From: a virus | Strand: one strand, 5' to 3' | DNA: 64,000 bases | IMG/VR virus record: IMGVR_UViG_3300046096_000285 | Location: 9,795 to 73,794 of that record | In this document: piece by piece, positions 9,755 to 63,158 of the stretch | Position numbering within the stretch: position 1 is the first letter of the stretch | Layout: each line of letters starts with the position of its first letter | Made by a program: the position numbers and the translations under genes | The notes under the pieces: model-generated | What the model was told of the DNA's origin: nothing | The model's input: only the letters and a program-made list of their open reading frames with translations | Databases searched by the model: none

Positions 9755-9831
9755 CCTCCAGTATCGGCTCACTCTTATAAGGTGTAGGAACCGTAGTTGG
9801 TGGCACGCGGGTTCAAGTCCCGCCTGGAGGA
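9755..9831 (+). tRNA. Atypical tRNA-like element, anticodon TAT (Ile), no recognisable D arm
   Basis: Perfect CCTCCAG/CTGGAGG acceptor, GCGGG-TTCAAGT-CCCGC T arm, CACT-CTTATAA-GGTG. Confidence 0.55.
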
Positions 9832-29269: not shown

Positions 29270-29725
29270 ATGAAATCAATAGACAGATTTACAACTAAAT
29301 ACAAAATCAATCTAGAAACAGGCTGCTGGGACTGGATAGCAGGGACATCGGCTGGGTATGGAGCGTTCGCGTACGAGCGCGGCAAAAAAGCCCATAGATT
29401 CTCGTACGAATACCACAACAACACCATTCTCGGCGAACTGACTATCGACCACTTATGTAGGAATACACTGTGCGTAAATCCAGAACACTTAGAGGCAGTA
29501 CCTAAGGGGGAGAACTCTAGGCGCAGAAATCTCAACCACACCTATAAGAAAAAAGAAGTCTGTAAGAATGGACACTTCATAGGAAAAAATGAATACGTCA
29601 GACCAGATGGCTACTCTGAGTGCCTACTATGTAGGAGTGATAGAGGTAAGGCTTATAGGGAGAAGCATGGAGACGAGCATAGAGCCAAACTTCGTAAGTA
29701 TTACCACGACAAAAAAAATAAATAA
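29270..29725 (+). CDS. HNH endonuclease
   Basis: GCWDW, AHRFSY, DHLCRNTLCVNPEHLEAV..EN, CKNGH. Confidence 0.92.
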   Translation: MKSIDRFTTKYKINLETGCWDWIAGTSAGYGAFAYERGKKAHRFSYEYHNNTILGELTIDHLCRNTLCVNPEHLEAVPKGENSRRRNLNHTYKKKEVCKNGHFIGKNEYVRPDGYSECLLCRSDRGKAYREKHGDEHRAKLRKYYHDKKNK

Positions 29726-52822: not shown

Positions 52823-54589
52823 TTGGGAATTTTTAAGCGTAGCTCCGCCCAGCAGCCAAAAGCTGCTAATCGCCAGCAAGGTCTTCGTGCCTCTGCTGCC
52901 CGTAACGCTACTCAGGTAGGCCCTGGCATCTCAGTAGACTCGTTCGGTGTAATTCGTGCAGAACCTGCAGTCTTCTCTAGCCCACGCCCTCTAACTGCAG
53001 CTGCTGCTCAGATTAAGATTGGCGACAAGGGCGAGGCCGAGTCATTTAAATCTCGCCGCCAGTCTGCCTCTACCGCGTGGCAGTCAGAAGCGTGGGAGTA
53101 CTACGATGCAATTGGTGAAATTAAATATGCTTTTAACCTTGTGGCGTCTGTCGTATCGCGTATCCGACTTTACGCAGCTGTTCTAGACGATCCAGCCGAG
53201 GCTCCAGTCCCAGTTAACAAGTCAAAGAAGATCGAGGGCGACCTTGCAGCTGCTGCAGAGCGTGCCCTAGGCCGTCTTGACTCTGCCTATGGAGGCCAGG
53301 CTGGTCTTCTTAAGGACGCTGCCCTAAACCTCCAGGTTACTGGCGAGTGCTACCTTGTTCAGGTTCCAGAGCGTATCGGCTCTCAGCTCCCTGAATCATG
53401 GGACATCCGCTCAGTTGATGAGCTTCAGGTTGACCAGAAGGGCAACTACATTATCAATGCCCGCCGTGGTGTTGGTGGCTCTTCTTCGATGAATGTCTCT
53501 AAGGACACCATCAAGCTTCCAAAGGATGCGTTCATTGGACGCGTATGGAAGGCTCACCCACGCTATAGCCAGGAGTCTGACAGCTCACTACGCGGCCTTC
53601 TAGACCTTTGTGCGGAACTACTACTCTTGAACCGTACTTTCCGTGCTACGGCCCGTTCTCGCCTCAATGCAGGTGCCCTCTACTTGCCAGACGGTCTATC
53701 AGTTGCTGCGTCTCCAGACCCAGATTATCCGTATGATGAAGATGGCGAATACAATGAGCAGTACAACATTGAAGAAGCTGCTGACGACTTTGAAGACCAG
53801 CTTATCGATGCGATGACCACTCCAATCAAGGATGAGGACTCAGCTTCTGCTGTTGTTCCTCTAATCATCCGCGGTCCTGCAGACCTTGGCGACAAGATCA
53901 AGCAGTTCAAGTTCGAGCGTTCATTTGACGACTCTCTTGTTGTTCGTGCTGACCGTGTTCTTGAGCGCATCATGCAGGGTCTAGACGTTCCTAAGGACGT
54001 TGTCTCTGGTATGGCTAACGTTAAGTACTCAAACGCTCTACAGATCGACGAGTCACTTTACAAGGCACACATTGAACCTCTAATGCTGCTCATTGTTGAC
54101 GCGCTTACTGTTGTCTACCTACGCCCTTACCTAATCGCTAATGGCTACGACAAGGCAGATGTTAACCGCCTCCACATTTGGTATGACCCATCGGCTGTTG
54201 CTACTCGTAACGACCGTGCAGCAGATGCAGATGCAGGCTTCGACAAGATGGCTGTATCATTTGACACATGGCGTCGCACCCATGGCTTCTCAGACCAGGA
54301 TGCACCAGACCCTACAGAGCTTGCACTTCGCATCGTTCTAAACAAGGGTGCTGTTACCCCTGAGCTAACTCAAGCCTTGCTTACTGCAGTTGCTCCGGAT
54401 GTTATGAACATGACCCGCGACATTCAGCAGCAGCAGTCAGCAGCACCAATCCCACCTGCTCTAGACCAGCTACTAACTCAGGCAACCGGAACTCCAGGTG
54501 CCCCTGCGGCTCCAGGCGCAGCTCCAGAAGTTGCCCCCGCCGATGCCGGACTAGCAGAACCCACCGCACCAACAACACCAGGAGCCTAA
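52823..54589 (+). CDS. Portal protein
   Basis: WQ.EAW.YYD.IGE, size and position after terL. Confidence 0.8.
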   Translation: MGIFKRSSAQQPKAANRQQGLRASAARNATQVGPGISVDSFGVIRAEPAVFSSPRPLTAAAAQIKIGDKGEAESFKSRRQSASTAWQSEAWEYYDAIGEIKYAFNLVASVVSRIRLYAAVLDDPAEAPVPVNKSKKIEGDLAAAAERALGRLDSAYGGQAGLLKDAALNLQVTGECYLVQVPERIGSQLPESWDIRSVDELQVDQKGNYIINARRGVGGSSSMNVSKDTIKLPKDAFIGRVWKAHPRYSQESDSSLRGLLDLCAELLLLNRTFRATARSRLNAGALYLPDGLSVAASPDPDYPYDEDGEYNEQYNIEEAADDFEDQLIDAMTTPIKDEDSASAVVPLIIRGPADLGDKIKQFKFERSFDDSLVVRADRVLERIMQGLDVPKDVVSGMANVKYSNALQIDESLYKAHIEPLMLLIVDALTVVYLRPYLIANGYDKADVNRLHIWYDPSAVATRNDRAADADAGFDKMAVSFDTWRRTHGFSDQDAPDPTELALRIVLNKGAVTPELTQALLTAVAPDVMNMTRDIQQQQSAAPIPPALDQLLTQATGTPGAPAAPGAAPEVAPADAGLAEPTAPTTPGA

Positions 54590-54595
54590 TCCAAT

Positions 54596-55120
54596 ATGAA
54601 TGAATACATCGACGTCCCACTAGACGAGACCGTTATGCCAATTGAAGAAATGCACGAAATTAAGCCAGAGCAGTCAGGTATGGATCTAGCTATCCTTCTT
54701 GCTCGCGCTGTTGCAGACTCTACAGTAGCGGCCAACATTGCTCACGGATATCACTGGAATGTTATGGGCCCAGACTTCAATGAGTATCACGAGTTCTTCG
54801 GCGAGATCTATGAAGATATCGATGCTTCAATTGATGACACTGCAGAGAGCATCCTTAAGCTAGGTCACGAAGCGCCATACCTTCTAACCGACTTCCTAGA
54901 GCTGACCTCTATTCACGAAGAACGTATTGATGGCGGAAACACTATTGCAATGCTTGAATCTCTACACCGAGTAAATGGAATCCTTATTGGGAAGTTCAAC
55001 GAGATCTTTGCTGTTGCAAATGATATCAACCGTCAGGACATTGCTAACTACGCAGCTGACCGTTTGACAGCGCTACAGAAGCACGCATGGCAGATCAAGG
55101 CTTCTCTAGGCATTCGCTAA
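54596..55120 (+). CDS. dps: Dps/ferritin-like protein
   Basis: HGYHWNV.G.DF...H.FF.E.Y...D..AE, K.AW. Confidence 0.88.
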   Translation: MNEYIDVPLDETVMPIEEMHEIKPEQSGMDLAILLARAVADSTVAANIAHGYHWNVMGPDFNEYHEFFGEIYEDIDASIDDTAESILKLGHEAPYLLTDFLELTSIHEERIDGGNTIAMLESLHRVNGILIGKFNEIFAVANDINRQDIANYAADRLTALQKHAWQIKASLGIR

Positions 55121-55268: not shown

Positions 55269-58190
55269 ATGTCTTATCTAGACAAATTTAACCCAGAAAC
55301 CATTCTTGCAGGAATCGGATTTAACGATGGAGCAAACAACGGCTTCTGGCGTGTACAACCGCGTCTAAAGTTTGGTAAGGGTGCTGGCCAGTGGATTGAG
55401 ATGGGTGCCGAGCTTCGTGCTGCATTCAAGATCAATGGCAAGGTCTCTAGTGTTCCTGGTCGCTCAGCTGGTTCTGGCGGAACCCCTGACACCGTACGTC
55501 TTCTAGTTCAGAACATGAGCGACAAGGGTATTCCTGATGGCATCTACGAAGTCAAGACCAAGCACGTTGAGCTAATTGGTGCTACTCTTCCAGAGAGCTA
55601 CCTAAAGTCAAAGGGCATCAAGACTGAAGGCAACGCTGACAACCTTGGCGGACTGACTGACGCTGCTGATATCCCAGAGCTAAAGGATATGAACACCGCT
55701 CCAATTACTCCAGATGACATCCGTCTTGTTAACGACGGTATCAACTCTCCAGAGGGCCGTGAGCAGTCTGCTTTCAAGGAGTCACCAGAAGGTAAGGCTA
55801 TTGCCCAGCTTCCAGAAGATGCCGCCGAGCCGATGTCTGGCAATGAAGCCATTGACCAGGCTACTGAGCCAGGTGCATTTATGGACCAGGAACGTCAGCT
55901 ATGGAATAAGACATCAGATCTTATGGACCAGATGATTAAGCTTGACTCATCTGACCCTAAGAACCTTCCAGAGCTAGAGCGCCTCTCCGCTGAGTATGAA
56001 AAGGCTCAGGCTGAGTACGATGCTATTGCTGGCGACATGCACAATGCGCAGGACATCGAGCACCTGGTTGACTACGCTCTAAACAAGGCTGGCAACGACG
56101 AGCCAGTTAATGTAGATGAGATCATCTCGATGGCTAAGGCTTCAGTATCCGACAAGAAGACTCCTGTTTCTCAGCTGAAGGGTATGAAGACAACCGCCAA
56201 GCCTGCATCTATGGAGCCTGGCGACATTTTCAACGACCGTGGCACCGACTATGTATTCGAAGCACCTGGCGAGCGCGACCGCGTATCTAAGACCCAGACT
56301 GTGTTTGCTAAGGACTACAACACCGGCGAGTCTAAGGAAATTCTTCTTGACACTGACGTTGCTACTCCTGTTTTCCGCCCTGACGCAGTTCAGCCAGAGC
56401 CTAAGGCTCCAGAAGCCCCTAAGGCCGCTAAGGTAGCAGAGCTTCCTAAGGCTCCAGAGGCTGCTCCAGCTCCAGAAGCTCCTAAGGCACCGGAAGCTAC
56501 TCCAACTCCAACTCCGGAGGTGCCTGCAGCTCCAAAGCCAAAGAAGGCTGCTAAGACTGACAAGACTGGAACTAAGGGAAACAAGGCTACGCCTGCCCCT
56601 ACTCCAGAGCTAGACCAGACCACTCCTGAAGCTAAGGCAATTGATGCTGGACGCGAGGATAAGGGTCAGGACATTGACTTCTCCCCTATCTCAGATGAGG
56701 AACTATTCGGTCGCAAGCTAGATACCAAGGGGTCTAAGTCTGGTGCCGACGCTATCGTTGAGCAGCTACTTAAGGACTACCCTGACGCCGCTGTAACCCC
56801 AGACGGCACTATTGTTCTGGAGCGTCGTAAGTTCACTGATTCTAACGGCAAGACCTACACCATGGAAAGCCGTGTCAACCGTACCGAAGGCAACCAGTTC
56901 ATGGTTAGCCAGAAGGTAACTGATGAAAATGGCGAGTCTACCGAGTACTTCCAGTACGACTACAAGGATTCGTACTCAGCTATTCACGGTAAGACTAATG
57001 GTATTCGCCGCATGAGCCGTATCCTTGCTGGTGAAGAGTCTCCTCTACAGGAGAAGCTACTTTCTGGTAAGAAGGCTGGACAGCCAAACCCTAACTACCT
57101 AAAGCACTTTGGACCTGGCACCAACCTAGCTGACCGTCTCGGCTACTTCCGTGACAAGTTTAACGACAAGGCTGGAAACAAGAACCTGCAGGAATACCGC
57201 CTACTAACTCTTCCAGAGATGACCAACCGTATTCTTGATGGTCGCGACCGTACCTTCAACCCAAGCCTCTCTAACAACCAGATTGGTAACGTTCAGCGTA
57301 GTTTCATCCAGAGCTTCTGGGAAGCAGCTAAGAACAAGGACAGCATCGGCATGGCCGAAGTTATGTCTGGCCTCATGGGACGCCTGCCTGACAATGAGTC
57401 ATCTCGTCAGCTAGCTCTTGCAGCAGTTCGTGCTGGAGTCAAGAAGAACCTTCCTGACGCAAACAAGAAGGAACTATCTGGATTTGTAACTGCTGCGTAC
57501 GCTGCAATGGTCAAGAAGTATGACTTCCGTAACCAGGTTCGCCCGCCGCACGTTTCAGGCGATGGAATCACTCCGGTTGAGGCTGGACAGTTCGTAGCAT
57601 GGTACAACAATGAAGGTGACCGCTCAGTTGGTTTCGTTGCTAACCTAGTAGAACGTGTTGGCTCTGGTGCTGGTCCTAATGAGTATACCGACGCAGCATA
57701 CGTCATCTTCGGTGACGGAACTCGCCGTAAGCTTGTGACCAAGAACATGGATATTATTGAAGCTGGTCACGCTTCTGACCTGACCTCATACAAGGGCTGG
57801 ATCACCAAGGAAGAGAAGCTAGTTCGCCGTGGATTTGACCCGAACATCTATGCAGTTGCAGACAATAAGCGCCAAGCTGCTGACCTTGCAGACCAGGGCT
57901 TCAACCCAGCAACTAACGCTGCTAACCCTAACCTTGGAACTCAGGGTAACGAGGATGCAAAGGTTACTAAGGCAGACAAGACTGTAAAGCCTGCAGCTGA
58001 CCTAATTACTGGTGACGGCATCTTCGACAATGACTTCACTAAGGTTGGTACCGTTATGGACACCGACCTAACTGAAATCGATGGTCAGCCAGTTGTTGTA
58101 GTCACCTACCGTGACCTTAAGACTAACGAAGTCAAAACTGTTGGATATCTTCCAGAGCAGATGGTTGGTGGCCAGGGCCCAAAAGCCTAA
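55269..58190 (+). CDS. Large head-region protein (973 aa), probable frameshift donor
   Basis: N-terminal QPR...GQW motif; APEAPK linker; ends at slippery site. Confidence 0.75.
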   Translation: MSYLDKFNPETILAGIGFNDGANNGFWRVQPRLKFGKGAGQWIEMGAELRAAFKINGKVSSVPGRSAGSGGTPDTVRLLVQNMSDKGIPDGIYEVKTKHVELIGATLPESYLKSKGIKTEGNADNLGGLTDAADIPELKDMNTAPITPDDIRLVNDGINSPEGREQSAFKESPEGKAIAQLPEDAAEPMSGNEAIDQATEPGAFMDQERQLWNKTSDLMDQMIKLDSSDPKNLPELERLSAEYEKAQAEYDAIAGDMHNAQDIEHLVDYALNKAGNDEPVNVDEIISMAKASVSDKKTPVSQLKGMKTTAKPASMEPGDIFNDRGTDYVFEAPGERDRVSKTQTVFAKDYNTGESKEILLDTDVATPVFRPDAVQPEPKAPEAPKAAKVAELPKAPEAAPAPEAPKAPEATPTPTPEVPAAPKPKKAAKTDKTGTKGNKATPAPTPELDQTTPEAKAIDAGREDKGQDIDFSPISDEELFGRKLDTKGSKSGADAIVEQLLKDYPDAAVTPDGTIVLERRKFTDSNGKTYTMESRVNRTEGNQFMVSQKVTDENGESTEYFQYDYKDSYSAIHGKTNGIRRMSRILAGEESPLQEKLLSGKKAGQPNPNYLKHFGPGTNLADRLGYFRDKFNDKAGNKNLQEYRLLTLPEMTNRILDGRDRTFNPSLSNNQIGNVQRSFIQSFWEAAKNKDSIGMAEVMSGLMGRLPDNESSRQLALAAVRAGVKKNLPDANKKELSGFVTAAYAAMVKKYDFRNQVRPPHVSGDGITPVEAGQFVAWYNNEGDRSVGFVANLVERVGSGAGPNEYTDAAYVIFGDGTRRKLVTKNMDIIEAGHASDLTSYKGWITKEEKLVRRGFDPNIYAVADNKRQAADLADQGFNPATNAANPNLGTQGNEDAKVTKADKTVKPAADLITGDGIFDNDFTKVGTVMDTDLTEIDGQPVVVVTYRDLKTNEVKTVGYLPEQMVGGQGPKA

Positions 58191-59794
58191 AGCCTTCATC
58201 GGATAAGTCCGAAGGAGGCGACAAGCCGATAGTAGAACCAGTCGTAATTAAGCAATCGATCTCGACTGGCAAGGTAGACAATACCCCTATCAAAATCTCG
58301 TCGCCTCTATCGGATGCTCCAGCAGATAACACCCCGCTAAACATTGACCTGAGCTCTTTCAAGAAGCCAGCAGCGACAAACAACACACCAATCCCAATTG
58401 ACCTATCTAAGCTAACCCCTAAAACGGAGAAGACTTCCTCATATCTAGACAACGAGACCATTCTTTCGCTATATAACGGGCTAGATGATCACCTGCTAGG
58501 CGACTACTCTCCCGATGAGGTTCTACACTCTGACAACCTAAATACTGCAGCAGCTGCTATGCAGGATAAGCTGCAGAAGCTGATTGCCTCCGGCACTGCT
58601 GGCGAAGCTACTGTTAGCACCTTTAAGAATCTGTACAAAAAGCGTCTTCAGGATATTTTGAACTACAACAAGACACTTCAGGCTCGCTACTCAGGCGTTC
58701 GAGGTGAAGTTAAGAGCTACAAGCCAGAGATTTCTTCTGACCCTATTCTCACCCCTGCCGAGCTTGCCGAAATTAATGCTAATGTCCAGTTTGCCGACGA
58801 GGCCGGAGCTATTCATGAGTCGGTCGGTACCTACACCCGCAGGGCTAGTCAACAATACACACTGAACCAGCTACGCGCACTTCAAGCATCTGCTGACGAG
58901 TCTAATGCCGAAACCGAGCTAGCTGGGAACATCCCAGAAGGTTTCCAGCTCTACACACATGCTCAACACTGGGACGATAGAGTATCCGATCAGGCTAGTA
59001 ATAACGTGTCCAAGCGCGTTGCTACGGTCACATTGCTGTTTAAAACTCCGGGCCGATCCCCTAAGAATCTGTATAGCGACTTGGTCATTGTCCCTAGCGA
59101 TCCAAAATTGAAAGGCACTAGGTTCAATATTCAGCGATCCGGTAGCGGGCATGTTTTGTCCCCTAGTCAGCTAAAAGACGCTACTGAAGCTTTTACTGCA
59201 GCTGCTAAAAATATGGACCTATATAGCCCGGATGTAAATAATTGGAGCACCCCTGGCGTGCGCTATCAATTCGGGATCTTTAATGATGATCCAGAGTTTA
59301 GACCTAGTGGCGTCCTGGCTTATGCCAGCAACATCGGGTCAGTAGTTAGATTCCACACCAATAGAATCCAGCTTCACAGCTGGGATTTCGAGAACCAGCA
59401 CACTAACGGCGATAAAGAGCTAGAGCACCACTTCGCTGCAGAAGAAGCAATAAAAAATGGTGACCTAACCATGCTTCAGTACACACTCTTCCACGAGACT
59501 GGGCACATCTTGGAATACAAGCGCGTCCCTATTAACTCATGGTATCGCTACATGAAGAACCGTAAGCCAGCCCGCCGTTGGGCGCAGTACAAATCTGACT
59601 TTGGTGGTAACACCCCTATCAGCGGGTACTCTAAGGATTCCGAGGCAGAGCACATTGCCGAAGCTATTGCTAAGTATCTAGCTACCGGAGAAGCTTCTCC
59701 GCAATTTAGAGACTTCATGATTAAGTATGCAATTGCAAATGGCGGTCAGGATTTCGTTCAATTGCCTAAACCAGCTAGTGCTAACCAGAAATAG
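58184..59794 (+). CDS. -1 frame extension with zincin (HEXXH) metalloprotease-like domain
   Basis: Frame open from 58178 to 59794; FHETGH...ISGYS....EHIAEA. Confidence 0.72.
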   Translation, partial: SLKPSSDKSEGGDKPIVEPVVIKQSISTGKVDNTPIKISSPLSDAPADNTPLNIDLSSFKKPAATNNTPIPIDLSKLTPKTEKTSSYLDNETILSLYNGLDDHLLGDYSPDEVLHSDNLNTAAAAMQDKLQKLIASGTAGEATVSTFKNLYKKRLQDILNYNKTLQARYSGVRGEVKSYKPEISSDPILTPAELAEINANVQFADEAGAIHESVGTYTRRASQQYTLNQLRALQASADESNAETELAGNIPEGFQLYTHAQHWDDRVSDQASNNVSKRVATVTLLFKTPGRSPKNLYSDLVIVPSDPKLKGTRFNIQRSGSGHVLSPSQLKDATEAFTAAAKNMDLYSPDVNNWSTPGVRYQFGIFNDDPEFRPSGVLAYASNIGSVVRFHTNRIQLHSWDFENQHTNGDKELEHHFAAEEAIKNGDLTMLQYTLFHETGHILEYKRVPINSWYRYMKNRKPARRWAQYKSDFGGNTPISGYSKDSEAEHIAEAIAKYLATGEASPQFRDFMIKYAIANGGQDFVQLPKPASANQK

Positions 59795-59810: not shown

Positions 59811-59996
59811 ATGGCTGAAGAAAACTATACTGATAACCCAGAACTCTGGATCCGCACCATTACGGAGACCACTGGCACCCGTGAGATTATCGAAGACCTT
59901 AGTCTTCTCAGCGACGAGGAGCTCATGGAAAAGGCTAATGACTACCCAGAACTGGAACAGCTAGTCATAAATCGCAGACTGAAGCGCTTTCTTTAG
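59811..59996 (+). CDS. Small hypothetical protein
   Basis: ORF directly after zincin domain. Confidence 0.5.
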   Translation: MAEENYTDNPELWIRTITETTGTREIIEDLSLLSDEELMEKANDYPELEQLVINRRLKRFL

Positions 59997-60482: not shown

Positions 60483-63158
60483 ATGCCTCAATACCTCGGC
60501 TCTTCAGACAACCTGGCCCTGTTTTCACAGGGTAACCAGGGTATTGTTGTTGACACTGCTCTAAACCTAGTTCTAGATGCAGGACCGCTTGACCTAGTTC
60601 TAGCTAGCCGCAACGTCATGTGGCGTGATAATGGTCTAGAAATTTCGGAAGAGCTAGATACTCTAGTTTCTTCTGCCGTAACTGTTGAAGAAGATGCTCT
60701 AACTGCAGCAGCTAGCCGTATGTATACTATTCCAGGCGGCGCTCAGGCAGAAGCCAAGAAGGCATTGGCTTGGCATAAGAAGCACCACCGCGGCGGCACT
60801 CCAGTTGGTTTAAATACTGCACGCACTCTTGCAAAGGGTGGCCAGATCGGCATCGAAAAGATCCGCCACATCGCTAAGTACTTCCCTCGTCACGAAGTTG
60901 ACAAAAAGGGCAAGGGCTGGGCTCCAGGCGAGGACAACTTCCCGTCTAATGGTCGTATCGCATGGGCCCTTTGGGGCGGAGATGCCGGACAGCGTTGGGC
61001 CTCTACTATCGTTAAGCGTGAAAACGCTATTACTGCTGACGCATATGCCGTCAACGAGTACGATGCATACGCTGATGAGCCAGCACTAAACGCATTTAAG
61101 ATGGCGCATGAACTAGACGAGAACTTTGGTCCAGAATTTTTGGCTCGTGTTCGCATGGATGGTTCTGGATTCGACCGCCTATACAAGGTTGGCATTGATG
61201 GTACCGTTTCAGTCTGGGATGACTGCAGCTGGGATGATCTGGGAAACGTAGATTCAGATATCTGGACTTACGACCGTGCTCTAGATGACCCATACGACTC
61301 TGTAGGCAAGGACCACGTCATTATTGATGCTGAGTCTGCTTTTGTTATTGCCTCTCTTCTTGAGAAGAGCCCACATGCTCCGGTCTACATTGATGACATC
61401 GATACTGAAGAGGCTCGTCTAGTTGCACTAGGTCTTCTAGAAGATGACCTAGCTTTTGTAGACTCAGCAATCACTGCTGCAGCTACCGTAGCTGCTAAAC
61501 CAGTAGCAGCTACTAAGGGTAACGACCAAGATGGCGTCGACACCCCGGAGGAGCGTGCTGCTCGTTCAGAGAACCAGCCACGCAATGCGCTAGGACGATT
61601 TGCTACTGCTGGCCAGAAGGTTGCTGTTGGCGGAGACGTTTCTCGTGGAGCCGGAACGATTACCAAGGTTGATGCAAAAACCGGTCTAGTAGACGTCAAG
61701 CTAAACTCCGGCTCAACGATTAGTGTTGACGCTAAATACACTCAGCCTTTAGAGGGAATGCCTCAGCCAGCAGCTGCTCCAGCTGGCGGGCTTATCAATA
61801 CAAAGCCACTAGATACTTCAGGTATCTTCGCTAAGCCACGTGCTCAGGTAAATATGACTAAGGCTACGCTGCCTTCTGGCACGTCTGCCGCATCTAGCGA
61901 CCAGCTAAAGAGCGGCCTATCTGGATTCGCTTCTTACGTAGCTGCCCAGCGTACTGCTACTGCAGACAACAAGGGAAAGATTGGCGTTCTAAAGGACGGC
62001 AAGATTACTCTGGCTCAGGGCATTAGCAAGGCTGTAGCCGAGGATAATAAGAACAGCAAGATTGTTCAGCCTATTCTTAAGGGCGGTAAAGACCTTATTG
62101 AAGGTAAGACCCATGTTTCTCAGGACATTGGCAAGGCAATTGGTAAGGCTGTAACTGACGCAGGTGCTGGTGTTGGCGGTCGTTCTGCCAACATTCCAGA
62201 CAAGCGTTCTGGCTTCCGCGGTATTGGTGGAACCAAGCCTACAACTACTACAAAGCCTGGTCCAGATGCAGTAGAGCGCAAGGGTGCACCTAAGCCAGCA
62301 GTCAAGCCAGCAGTCAAGCCAGCAGTCAACCCTGCTGCCAAGGGCGGAGACTACACAATTCAGAAGGGCGACAACCTATGGTCTATCGCCGAGAAGAATA
62401 AGCCAGCTGGCGTAAGTACCGCTGACTACTGGAAGCAGATTCTTGATGCAAACCCTAAGGGCAACTTCAAGAGTGGCGACCACAACCTGATCTATTCTGG
62501 TGAGAAGGTAATTCTTCCAGGTAAGGCTAAGTCGACCCCTACAGATTCTCGCAACGCGCCGGGCTCAAACAAGAGCACCCCGAGCAAGACCGACTCACGC
62601 AATGCGCCGGGTTCAAACCGCGAGACTAAGTCAACTCCAGTTGATTCACGCAATGCTCCTGGCTCTAACAAGAACGGCCCAACTGATTCTCGTAATGCTC
62701 CTGGATCTAACAAATCTAGTGCAAAACCAGGCCCAGATGCAGTAGAGCGCAAGGGTGCACCTAAGAAGTACTCAGGCCCAATGATTGACCCTAACACCGG
62801 TAAGTCTACAATTACTGACTCGAACAAGGGTACTCCGGTTAAGCTACAAGGCACCCCTAAGGATGCTCCTTTTGTGAAGAAGACTGGAACTGACACTACT
62901 GACGTAGTCGGAGTTCCAGCTAAGAAAACAAAAACCTATTCAGGTCCGATGGTAGATCCTAAGACTGGTAAGTCTACAATTCCTACGGCTACTACACCAA
63001 AGCCAGGTATCCCAGTTCAGGGAAATAAACTCCCTAACGTTGGTGCAAAGTATACTGGTATTACTACTAAATCTGCCAACCTAGGCGGTAAGGGCAAGGC
63101 TGGCGCTAAGCGTCAGAAGCCTGGTGACGGTAGTATGCTCTTCAAAACAGGGAAGTAA
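60483..63158 (+). CDS. Multidomain virion-type protein with LysM and low-complexity repeats
   Basis: GGT.VG..TAR.LA..IAWALWGGD domain; QPRN..GRF; YTIQKGDNLWSIA..LIYSGEKV.LP; DSRNAPGSN x4. Confidence 0.75.
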   Translation: MPQYLGSSDNLALFSQGNQGIVVDTALNLVLDAGPLDLVLASRNVMWRDNGLEISEELDTLVSSAVTVEEDALTAAASRMYTIPGGAQAEAKKALAWHKKHHRGGTPVGLNTARTLAKGGQIGIEKIRHIAKYFPRHEVDKKGKGWAPGEDNFPSNGRIAWALWGGDAGQRWASTIVKRENAITADAYAVNEYDAYADEPALNAFKMAHELDENFGPEFLARVRMDGSGFDRLYKVGIDGTVSVWDDCSWDDLGNVDSDIWTYDRALDDPYDSVGKDHVIIDAESAFVIASLLEKSPHAPVYIDDIDTEEARLVALGLLEDDLAFVDSAITAAATVAAKPVAATKGNDQDGVDTPEERAARSENQPRNALGRFATAGQKVAVGGDVSRGAGTITKVDAKTGLVDVKLNSGSTISVDAKYTQPLEGMPQPAAAPAGGLINTKPLDTSGIFAKPRAQVNMTKATLPSGTSAASSDQLKSGLSGFASYVAAQRTATADNKGKIGVLKDGKITLAQGISKAVAEDNKNSKIVQPILKGGKDLIEGKTHVSQDIGKAIGKAVTDAGAGVGGRSANIPDKRSGFRGIGGTKPTTTTKPGPDAVERKGAPKPAVKPAVKPAVNPAAKGGDYTIQKGDNLWSIAEKNKPAGVSTADYWKQILDANPKGNFKSGDHNLIYSGEKVILPGKAKSTPTDSRNAPGSNKSTPSKTDSRNAPGSNRETKSTPVDSRNAPGSNKNGPTDSRNAPGSNKSSAKPGPDAVERKGAPKKYSGPMIDPNTGKSTITDSNKGTPVKLQGTPKDAPFVKKTGTDTTDVVGVPAKKTKTYSGPMVDPKTGKSTIPTATTPKPGIPVQGNKLPNVGAKYTGITTKSANLGGKGKAGAKRQKPGDGSMLFKTGK

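Follow-up and report, generated by a model that had tools for sequence, protein, structure and literature searches.

We describe a phage gene that is probably translated into two proteins through -1 programmed ribosomal frameshifting (PRF), the longer of which would end in a zinc metallopeptidase (zincin). The DNA in question is a stretch of 64,000 nucleotides (nt), positions 9,795 to 73,794 of the IMG/VR record IMGVR_UViG_3300046096_000285, here called the window; it forms the right-hand 64 kb of an incomplete contig of 73.8 kb, of metagenomic origin, from an uncultured phage present in freshwater metagenomes. With a probability of roughly 0.8, judged from sequence comparison, the region 55269-58190 and the reading frame that follows it form one recoded gene, in which a -1 frameshift at the slippery heptamer C_CCA_AAA would give products of 973 and 1508 amino acids (aa). 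Most ribosomes would stop at the TAA at 58188 and release the 973-aa protein, which we call the carrier. A hairpin (58192-58219) would pause a fraction of them with the P and A sites on CCA AAA, and these would slip back by one base (CCA to CCC, AAA to AAA) and read the -1 frame to 59794; the long product would then share its first 972 residues with the carrier and continue with a linker and a zinc metallopeptidase resembling lethal factor, together called the extension. Such a site had been proposed in a first-pass annotation of this DNA, and every checkable detail of that observation (heptamer, stop, spacer, hairpin, open -1 frame and the motifs HETGH...E..AE) was borne out. The proposal that C_CCA_AAA and the hairpin 3' of it direct a -1 programmed frameshift is supported by conservation in about 12 lineages, and the comparisons set out below make it very likely that a conserved frameshift of this kind produces the 973-aa and 1508-aa forms.

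In the window itself, the 3' end of the carrier open reading frame (ORF) reads GGC CCA AAA GCC TAA, so that the protein ends in ..GQGPKA, and the heptamer stands in the zero-frame X_XXY_YYZ register with a structure 7 nt downstream, inside the range of 5-9 nt that is canonical for -1 sites. The hairpin (GCCUUC-A-UCGGA-UAAG-UCCGA-A-GGAGGC) lies within a 60-nt stretch that folds at -18.6 kcal/mol (z = -3.4), a stability equalled by one of 200 shuffled sequences. AAA is a rare codon in the carrier gene, accounting for three of its 80 Lys codons, and one of these three sits in the heptamer. A heptamer no more than 12 nt from the stop is found in two of the 63 long + strand ORFs of the window, and the case from this single genome is therefore moderate, the weight resting on conservation in relatives. 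The only other such ORF, 29270-29725, has an in-frame A_AAA_AAT within that distance of its stop. We also observed that two in-frame heptamers overlap in tandem at the carrier site (G_GGC_CCA and C_CCA_AAA, 58175-58184), the second alone being conserved in relatives, while inspection by eye of the region upstream of the heptamer revealed no Shine-Dalgarno-like stimulator, as in dnaX, that is conserved across lineages.

Scans of viral contigs, run with the protein as well as with an alignment of the family, yielded 84 related loci (L001-L084). The same succession of heptamer, stop and open -1 frame recurs in 15 of them, which represent about 12 lineages and show 26-62% identity to the window protein. 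It takes the form either of C_CCA_AAA with the stop directly behind it or after one codon, or of A_AAA_AAA followed by one codon and the stop, and the -1 frame then remains open for 306 to 1637 further codons. In three lineages the open -1 frame begins just 13 nt ahead of the stop, so that the change of frame must there fall at the heptamer. All 15 loci have a stem-loop starting 3-8 nt past the heptamer (5-8 nt in 13 of them). The stem sequences are unrelated between lineages, and within close groups three compensatory base-pair changes are evident: one pair has changed from GC to AU within the group of L022, L023 and L049, and two pairs differ between L018 and L041. In a further group (L015, L051, L025, L040) the outer stem stays unchanged, and a different self-pairing sequence takes the place of the inner part. 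Heptamer and hairpin, the conservation of which the first-pass annotation had suggested as a check, are kept in about 12 lineages together with the position of the stop, and the variable C-termini that it expected in relatives are found as well, reaching beyond the zincin to an ADP-ribosyltransferase and an RNase_T exonuclease.

A second line of evidence is provided by homologues in which the two parts are joined in frame. Among 55 homologues recovered by protein search, about 34 have frameshift-type ends, with either ..(G/S/A)PK(A/G) or ..PKK(A/D/E) directly before the stop, 15 carry the same zincin in frame at the C-terminus (HExGH...EHFAE), and six have ArdC_N together with MPTase-PolyVal. 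The in-frame C-termini of two fused relatives, L009 and L006, match the window extension with hhalign probabilities of 98.9 and 99.2%, and ..GE.R(G/A)PK.. is retained where the two parts of the fused proteins meet. For five fused lineages this junction was located in the DNA; the Pro-Lys/Asn is there spelled CCT AAG, CCT AAA or CCT AAT, none of which is slippery, whereas every frameshift-type locus spells CCA AAA. The same Pro-Lys is thus spelled in a slippery way in the frameshift types only, which makes the constraint on the signal separable from the constraint on the protein; the slippery spelling, the rarity of AAA and the compensatory changes in the stem all point to conservation of the signal beyond what the protein requires. 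Fused and frameshift types are scattered among each other in a tree built from the N-terminal domain, the well-supported branches of which force at least 7-8 changes from one to the other, a count that stems from one domain only and could be inflated by recombination.

The sequence downstream of the carrier stop likewise looks like the continuation of a gene. The -1 frame stays open between 58127 and 59794, and from the carrier stop to the ATG at 58559 it has no stop in 122 codons, compared with 11 in each of the other forward frames; a stop-free stretch of that length arose in only 52 of 20000 shuffles. Neither ATG nor GTG nor TTG occurs in the -1 frame in the 371 nt before 58559, and the absence of both stops and start codons indicates that the extension is coding but lacks a start of its own. 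The predicted fusion (972 + 536 = 1508 aa) has the junction ..GQGPK/SLKPSSDK.., as the first-pass annotation had it, and the predicted junction peptide is GQGPKSLKPSSDK. The extension begins with an acidic disordered linker (residues 1-90, with an NIDLS motif), continues with a helical part (90-200) and holds the zincin at about 300-520. A conserved acidic motif, (D/N)-(F/I)-D-(L/F), lies upstream of the first possible start in seven of the nine loci in which it is located in the linker. A scan of viral contigs with the 411-aa ORF from ATG 58559 alone gave no match.

Several points weigh against this interpretation. Heptamers ending in AAG shift best in Escherichia coli reporter studies, and C_CCA_AAA ends in AAA. 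The junction Pro-Lys is conserved as protein in the fused forms too, and part of the conservation of the heptamer is therefore due to the protein. In the window only, AAGGAGG stands 9 nt before an in-frame ATA (58229), where a weak non-AUG start is possible. The trans-frame product is a prediction from the comparison of sequences, a location of the carrier in the virion is suggested by gene order and analogy, and neither a MuF domain nor any other known head-protein domain was found in the carrier with Pfam, PHROGs or Foldseek against PDB and BFVD.

The conserved Pro-Lys and the AAGGAGG sequence, as well as the fact that gene callers split the two ORFs, would also fit an arrangement of two genes, in which the zincin starts independently at ATG 58559 or at a non-AUG codon (ATA 58229) and the heptamer merely encodes Pro-Lys. 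We regard this arrangement as improbable. The ATG at 58559 has no Shine-Dalgarno sequence, while the neighbouring head genes have sites of the AGGA/GGAG type, and independent initiation there, which the first-pass annotation had set against its own proposal, is judged unlikely. The AAGGAGG (58210-58231 region) makes up the 3' arm of the hairpin and does not occur in the other lineages. The first canonical starts of the different loci lie 47-371 nt past the stop, at inconsistent positions and mostly downstream of the conserved acidic motif, and the -1 relation, the slippery spelling and the hairpin are kept in 15 of 15 loci, whereas the fused forms are non-slippery.

Somewhat less probable again is transcriptional slippage, in which RNA polymerase would add one A within the run of A and the edited mRNA would encode the fusion. 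A single inserted A does yield the same product, and slippage gains in plausibility in three lineages with a run of seven A (CCA AAA AAA); in the window and most lineages, however, the run has only four, far below the lengths known for transcriptional slippage in bacteria, and the conserved structure lies downstream of the heptamer at the spacing of PRF, whereas the kind of transcriptional slippage that is driven by a hairpin depends on one formed upstream, in the nascent RNA. RNA reads were found in a single run, from a relative, and cover 57833-58063 only, upstream of the slip site. The picture would look alike if assembly had introduced an indel, or if a fusion gene had lately been broken and its downstream part silenced, given that sister lineages have in-frame fusions which the loss of one base would turn into this arrangement. 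This reading is highly improbable: contigs from three other metagenome runs that cover 58121-58454 or more show no difference and no indel at the site (the first-pass annotation had proposed to look for an indel in the reads), the arrangement is repeated in about 12 diverged lineages from independent assemblies, and intact catalytic motifs and long open -1 frames are kept in all of them, which argues against a dead gene.

The carrier consists of a conserved N-terminal domain of about 200 aa, followed by helical parts and five small SH3/Tudor-like barrels; the AlphaFold2 (AF2) model, with a mean predicted local distance difference test (pLDDT) of 72, shows these five barrels, helical segments and a disordered Pro/Ala-rich linker. 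The first-pass annotation had pointed to head-associated proteins of the MuF type. A MuF-type nature of the carrier found no support: the 973-aa sequence has no match of any kind at E <= 0.01 in Pfam, PHROGs or NCBIfam, the MuF domain (PF04233) included, the model is a chain of SH3/Tudor-like barrels, and Foldseek searches with it against PDB and BFVD gave no strong match to any fold, returning only weak Tudor/SH3-type and uncharacterised phage matches. The carrier is thus not detectably MuF, and a very remote relation may be compatible with these searches. Its two closest homologues (P0001 and P0002) are 83% and 80% identical, and a metagenome-contig scan with the last 300 residues found no match. 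The most conserved part is formed by the first ~200 residues (55269-55868), with the pattern GFNDGANKGFWR.QPR...GQWIEMG, for which there is no Pfam model and for which a lookup in the ESM Atlas gave no usable match. This domain heads 438 representative protein clusters (E <= 0.001), and nearly always forms the very N-terminus of proteins that are 900 to over 5000 residues long, among them giants of 2000-5400 aa. We consider it a candidate capsid-loading domain.

The surroundings of the carrier gene are consistent with its being part of the head module, as it is encoded among virion genes, two genes after the portal. Related loci show a conserved order of portal, ferritin-like gene, carrier, a 125-aa acidic protein, an 891-aa LysM protein and a 194-aa protein; by tblastn against the 84 loci, the last three genes have homologues in 20-40 loci and the ferritin/Dps-like gene in 57, where it directly precedes the carrier gene in all cases in which it was located. 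Portal identity among related loci is 78-84% versus 26-62% for the carrier two genes downstream, indicating a fast-evolving gene inside a stable module, and the carrier is hypervariable also in length (973 to 1650 aa among relatives, with large insertions). Neither the window DNA nor the carrier or extension protein had a match in a cultured-phage collection, and so far as searched the carrier family is recorded from metagenomes only. Table 1 lists the features of the region.

Table 1. Positions of the recoding signals, the protein motifs and the neighbouring genes in the window
Feature	Position	Strand	Basis
Portal protein gene, start of head module	52823..54589	+	phrog_776 portal, E 3e-107
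Ferritin/Dps-like gene, between portal and carrier	54596..55120	+	Pfam Ferritin PF00210, E 5e-17
Carrier gene, 973 aa	55269..58190	+	ORF list; 55 homologues; AF2 model
Slippery heptamer C_CCA_AAA (X_XXY_YYZ, zero frame)	58178..58184	+	Sequence; this or A_AAA_AAA in 15 related loci
Predicted -1 extension, 536 codons + stop, read only after shift	58184..59794	+	Translation; alignment with relatives
Zero-frame stop TAA, one codon past heptamer, within spacer	58188..58190	+	Sequence; 0 or 1 codon in relatives
Putative stimulatory stem-loop, 7 nt past heptamer	58192..58219	+	Fold; 6-bp and 5-bp stems, UAAG loop
HETGH zinc-binding and catalytic motif, extension residues 437-441	59492..59506	+	H437, E438, H441 invariant, 19 aligned sequences
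EHIAE, extension residues 489-493	59648..59662	+	E489, A492, E493 invariant in alignment A1
61-aa ORF, not part of conserved system	59811..59996	+	tblastn, 0 homologues in 84 loci

Three of the neighbours deserve a comment of their own. The ferritin/Dps-like gene (54596-55120) stands at an unexpected site for an iron-storage or DNA-protection fold, and its product may be a head-internal protein. The 891-aa protein (60483-63158) has a LysM domain at residues 624-679 and an N-terminal part of ~490 residues that is 50-60% identical across about 40 loci, and it is possibly an ejected cell-wall-binding protein; a BLAST comparison of the carrier N-terminal domain with this protein, prompted by the possibility that both bear one targeting signal, yielded no significant match. 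The 61-aa ORF behind the extension, which the first-pass annotation had thought might encode an inhibitor, has no tblastn homologue in any of the 84 related loci although its neighbours are conserved, and a role of this kind finds no support.

For the extension, the earlier assignment to the zincins agrees with what we found. It has the two parts of a gluzincin, HExxH and a Glu on a later helix, and both are invariant or nearly so in the alignments, with lethal factor and the Pro-Pro endopeptidases (PPEPs), gluzincins which we take to be those of MEROPS family M34, as the best matches in fold and in sequence. EHIAE aligns with EAEFFAEAF of lethal factor, the helix that gives the third zinc ligand in gluzincins of the lethal-factor type, and the closest solved structure by sequence is the catalytic core of lethal factor (PDB profile E 0.027). 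Top peptidases among the structural matches (VIA-align) are lethal factor (Z 7.6), PPEP-2 (Z 7.2) and PPEP-3 (Z 6.9), where Z under 8 is common by chance; Foldseek with the extension model gave E 0.66, and as the model is poor (pLDDT 54) the fold matches are supportive only. The window extension has no Pfam match; one relative, L011, reaches 22.3 bits against ATLF, below the cut-off of 27.4, and L011 alone passes the cut-off of Peptidase_Mx1. The best match of the predicted extension, with borderline scores in sequence and model, is therefore a gluzincin like that of anthrax lethal factor.

The domains found behind the slip signal vary. The window, L017 and L033 have the zincin as their only cargo, L041 has zincin and RNase_T, and L018, with 3089 aa in all, joins zincin, ADP-ribosyltransferase (ADPrib_exo_Tox) and RNase_T. 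The extensions of L022 (13215-16499) and L049 (12612-15890), of about 1095 aa each, are without the lethal-factor-like zincin and have an RNase_T exonuclease near the start and an HEFWH motif near residue 924, so that the cargo behind the same signal has been exchanged. The giant relatives examined contain a UvrD helicase and a weak ParB_N match below the cut-off.

This composition resembles that of the phage-type "polyvalent proteins" (Iyer, Burroughs, Anand, de Souza, Aravind 2017; PMC5512222), which are large multidomain proteins encoded among virion genes with a zincin metallopeptidase as their commonest domain. The relatives described here likewise combine multiple unrelated domains of effector type around a zincin MPTase as hub, joining it with ADP-ribosyltransferase, nuclease, helicase, ArdC-N and the weak, below-cut-off ParB, and judged by these sequences the carrier belongs to the polyvalent kind. 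For polyvalent proteins, packaging into the head and injection have been proposed, with the peptidase either processing its own protein or attacking host proteins (PMC5512222). Those proteins are treated there as single polypeptides, whereas the cargo here would be joined to the N-terminal part by recoding; the word "frameshift" does not occur in PMC5512222, and full-text literature searches found no paper that links ribosomal frameshifting with polyvalent proteins.

We suggest that the 973-aa protein is a virion-internal carrier of this kind, which would be loaded into the head via its conserved N-terminal domain, and that the frameshift could set how many copies bear the enzyme cargo, as in Gag/Gag-Pol of retroviruses. 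We assume that the long form is the minor one, in analogy to the gpG/gpGT pair of lambda and to Gag/Gag-Pol. The peptidase might cut its own protein or act on host proteins after injection, and self-processing is as good a reading as that of a delivered effector. The wider scenario is that a freshwater phage family couples a head-internal carrier to exchangeable cargo (protease, ADP-ribosyltransferase, nuclease) by a -1 frameshift, has switched repeatedly between fusion and frameshift via the spelling of one Pro-Lys, and thereby doses injected weapons per particle as a counterpart to Gag/Gag-Pol; on this picture as a whole we hold the chances to be evenly balanced.

If confirmed, frameshifting would here serve to attach enzymes to a large protein encoded in the head module, a use for which we found no description in the literature, and it would offer a simple rule, open to testing, for the way in which a phage sets how many copies in a particle bear an enzyme. 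Gene callers would systematically split such proteins, leaving the cargo domains annotated as orphan genes with false starts. The pairs of fused and frameshift types, which differ by synonymous codons at one Pro-Lys, would amount to a natural experiment on why dosing matters. Nor is the family small, with 438 clusters headed by the N-terminal domain and a frameshift-type end in about 34 of the 55 close homologues.

To our knowledge, the conserved frameshifts described in tailed phages mainly concern tail chaperones and the decoration of coat or tail proteins. Like lambda gpG/gpGT, T7 10A/10B and the case of Lactobacillus phage A2, which reportedly also uses C_CCA_AAA, the present example places a conserved -1 slip close to the 3' end of a gene in a structural module, and the predicted outcome, as in those cases, is a short and a C-terminally extended product at a set ratio. 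It differs from them in that the gene, of another family, lies next to the portal rather than being part of a tail module or a coat gene, and in that an enzyme module of 300-1600 residues is added instead of a chaperone domain or an Ig-like decoration. A review covers phage frameshifts by which coat and tail proteins gain Ig-like domains (Atkins review, PMC5009743); it also notes for other phages what the in-frame fusions show here, namely that some relatives make the extension without frameshifting (PMC5009743).

Position next to the portal and modular build with variable C-terminal enzymes are features shared with the MuF head proteins and their toxins (Mu gp30, SPP1 gp7), from which the carrier is set apart by its SH3/Tudor-like barrel chain with no MuF domain detected. 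In actinophages, gene pairs of a MuF-like protein and a VIP2 ADP-ribosyltransferase have been flagged by PRFect as possible frameshifts, with no test (PMC10885494). The peptidase resembles anthrax lethal factor and the Pro-Pro endopeptidases in having HExxH and a helix with E..AE some 50 residues further on; unlike lethal factor, it would be a phage protein in a bacterial setting, where nothing points to a role outside bacteria. With retroviral Gag/Gag-Pol there is no homology, the virus is of another type and the likeness, known here from sequence, is one of mechanism only. The working logic would nevertheless be shared: a -1 slip, predicted in the phage, at the end of a structural gene attaches enzymes, with the protease first after the junction; in Gag/Gag-Pol the enzymes are borne by a minority of copies and carried into the particle by the structural part, which is the role that we propose for the phage carrier.

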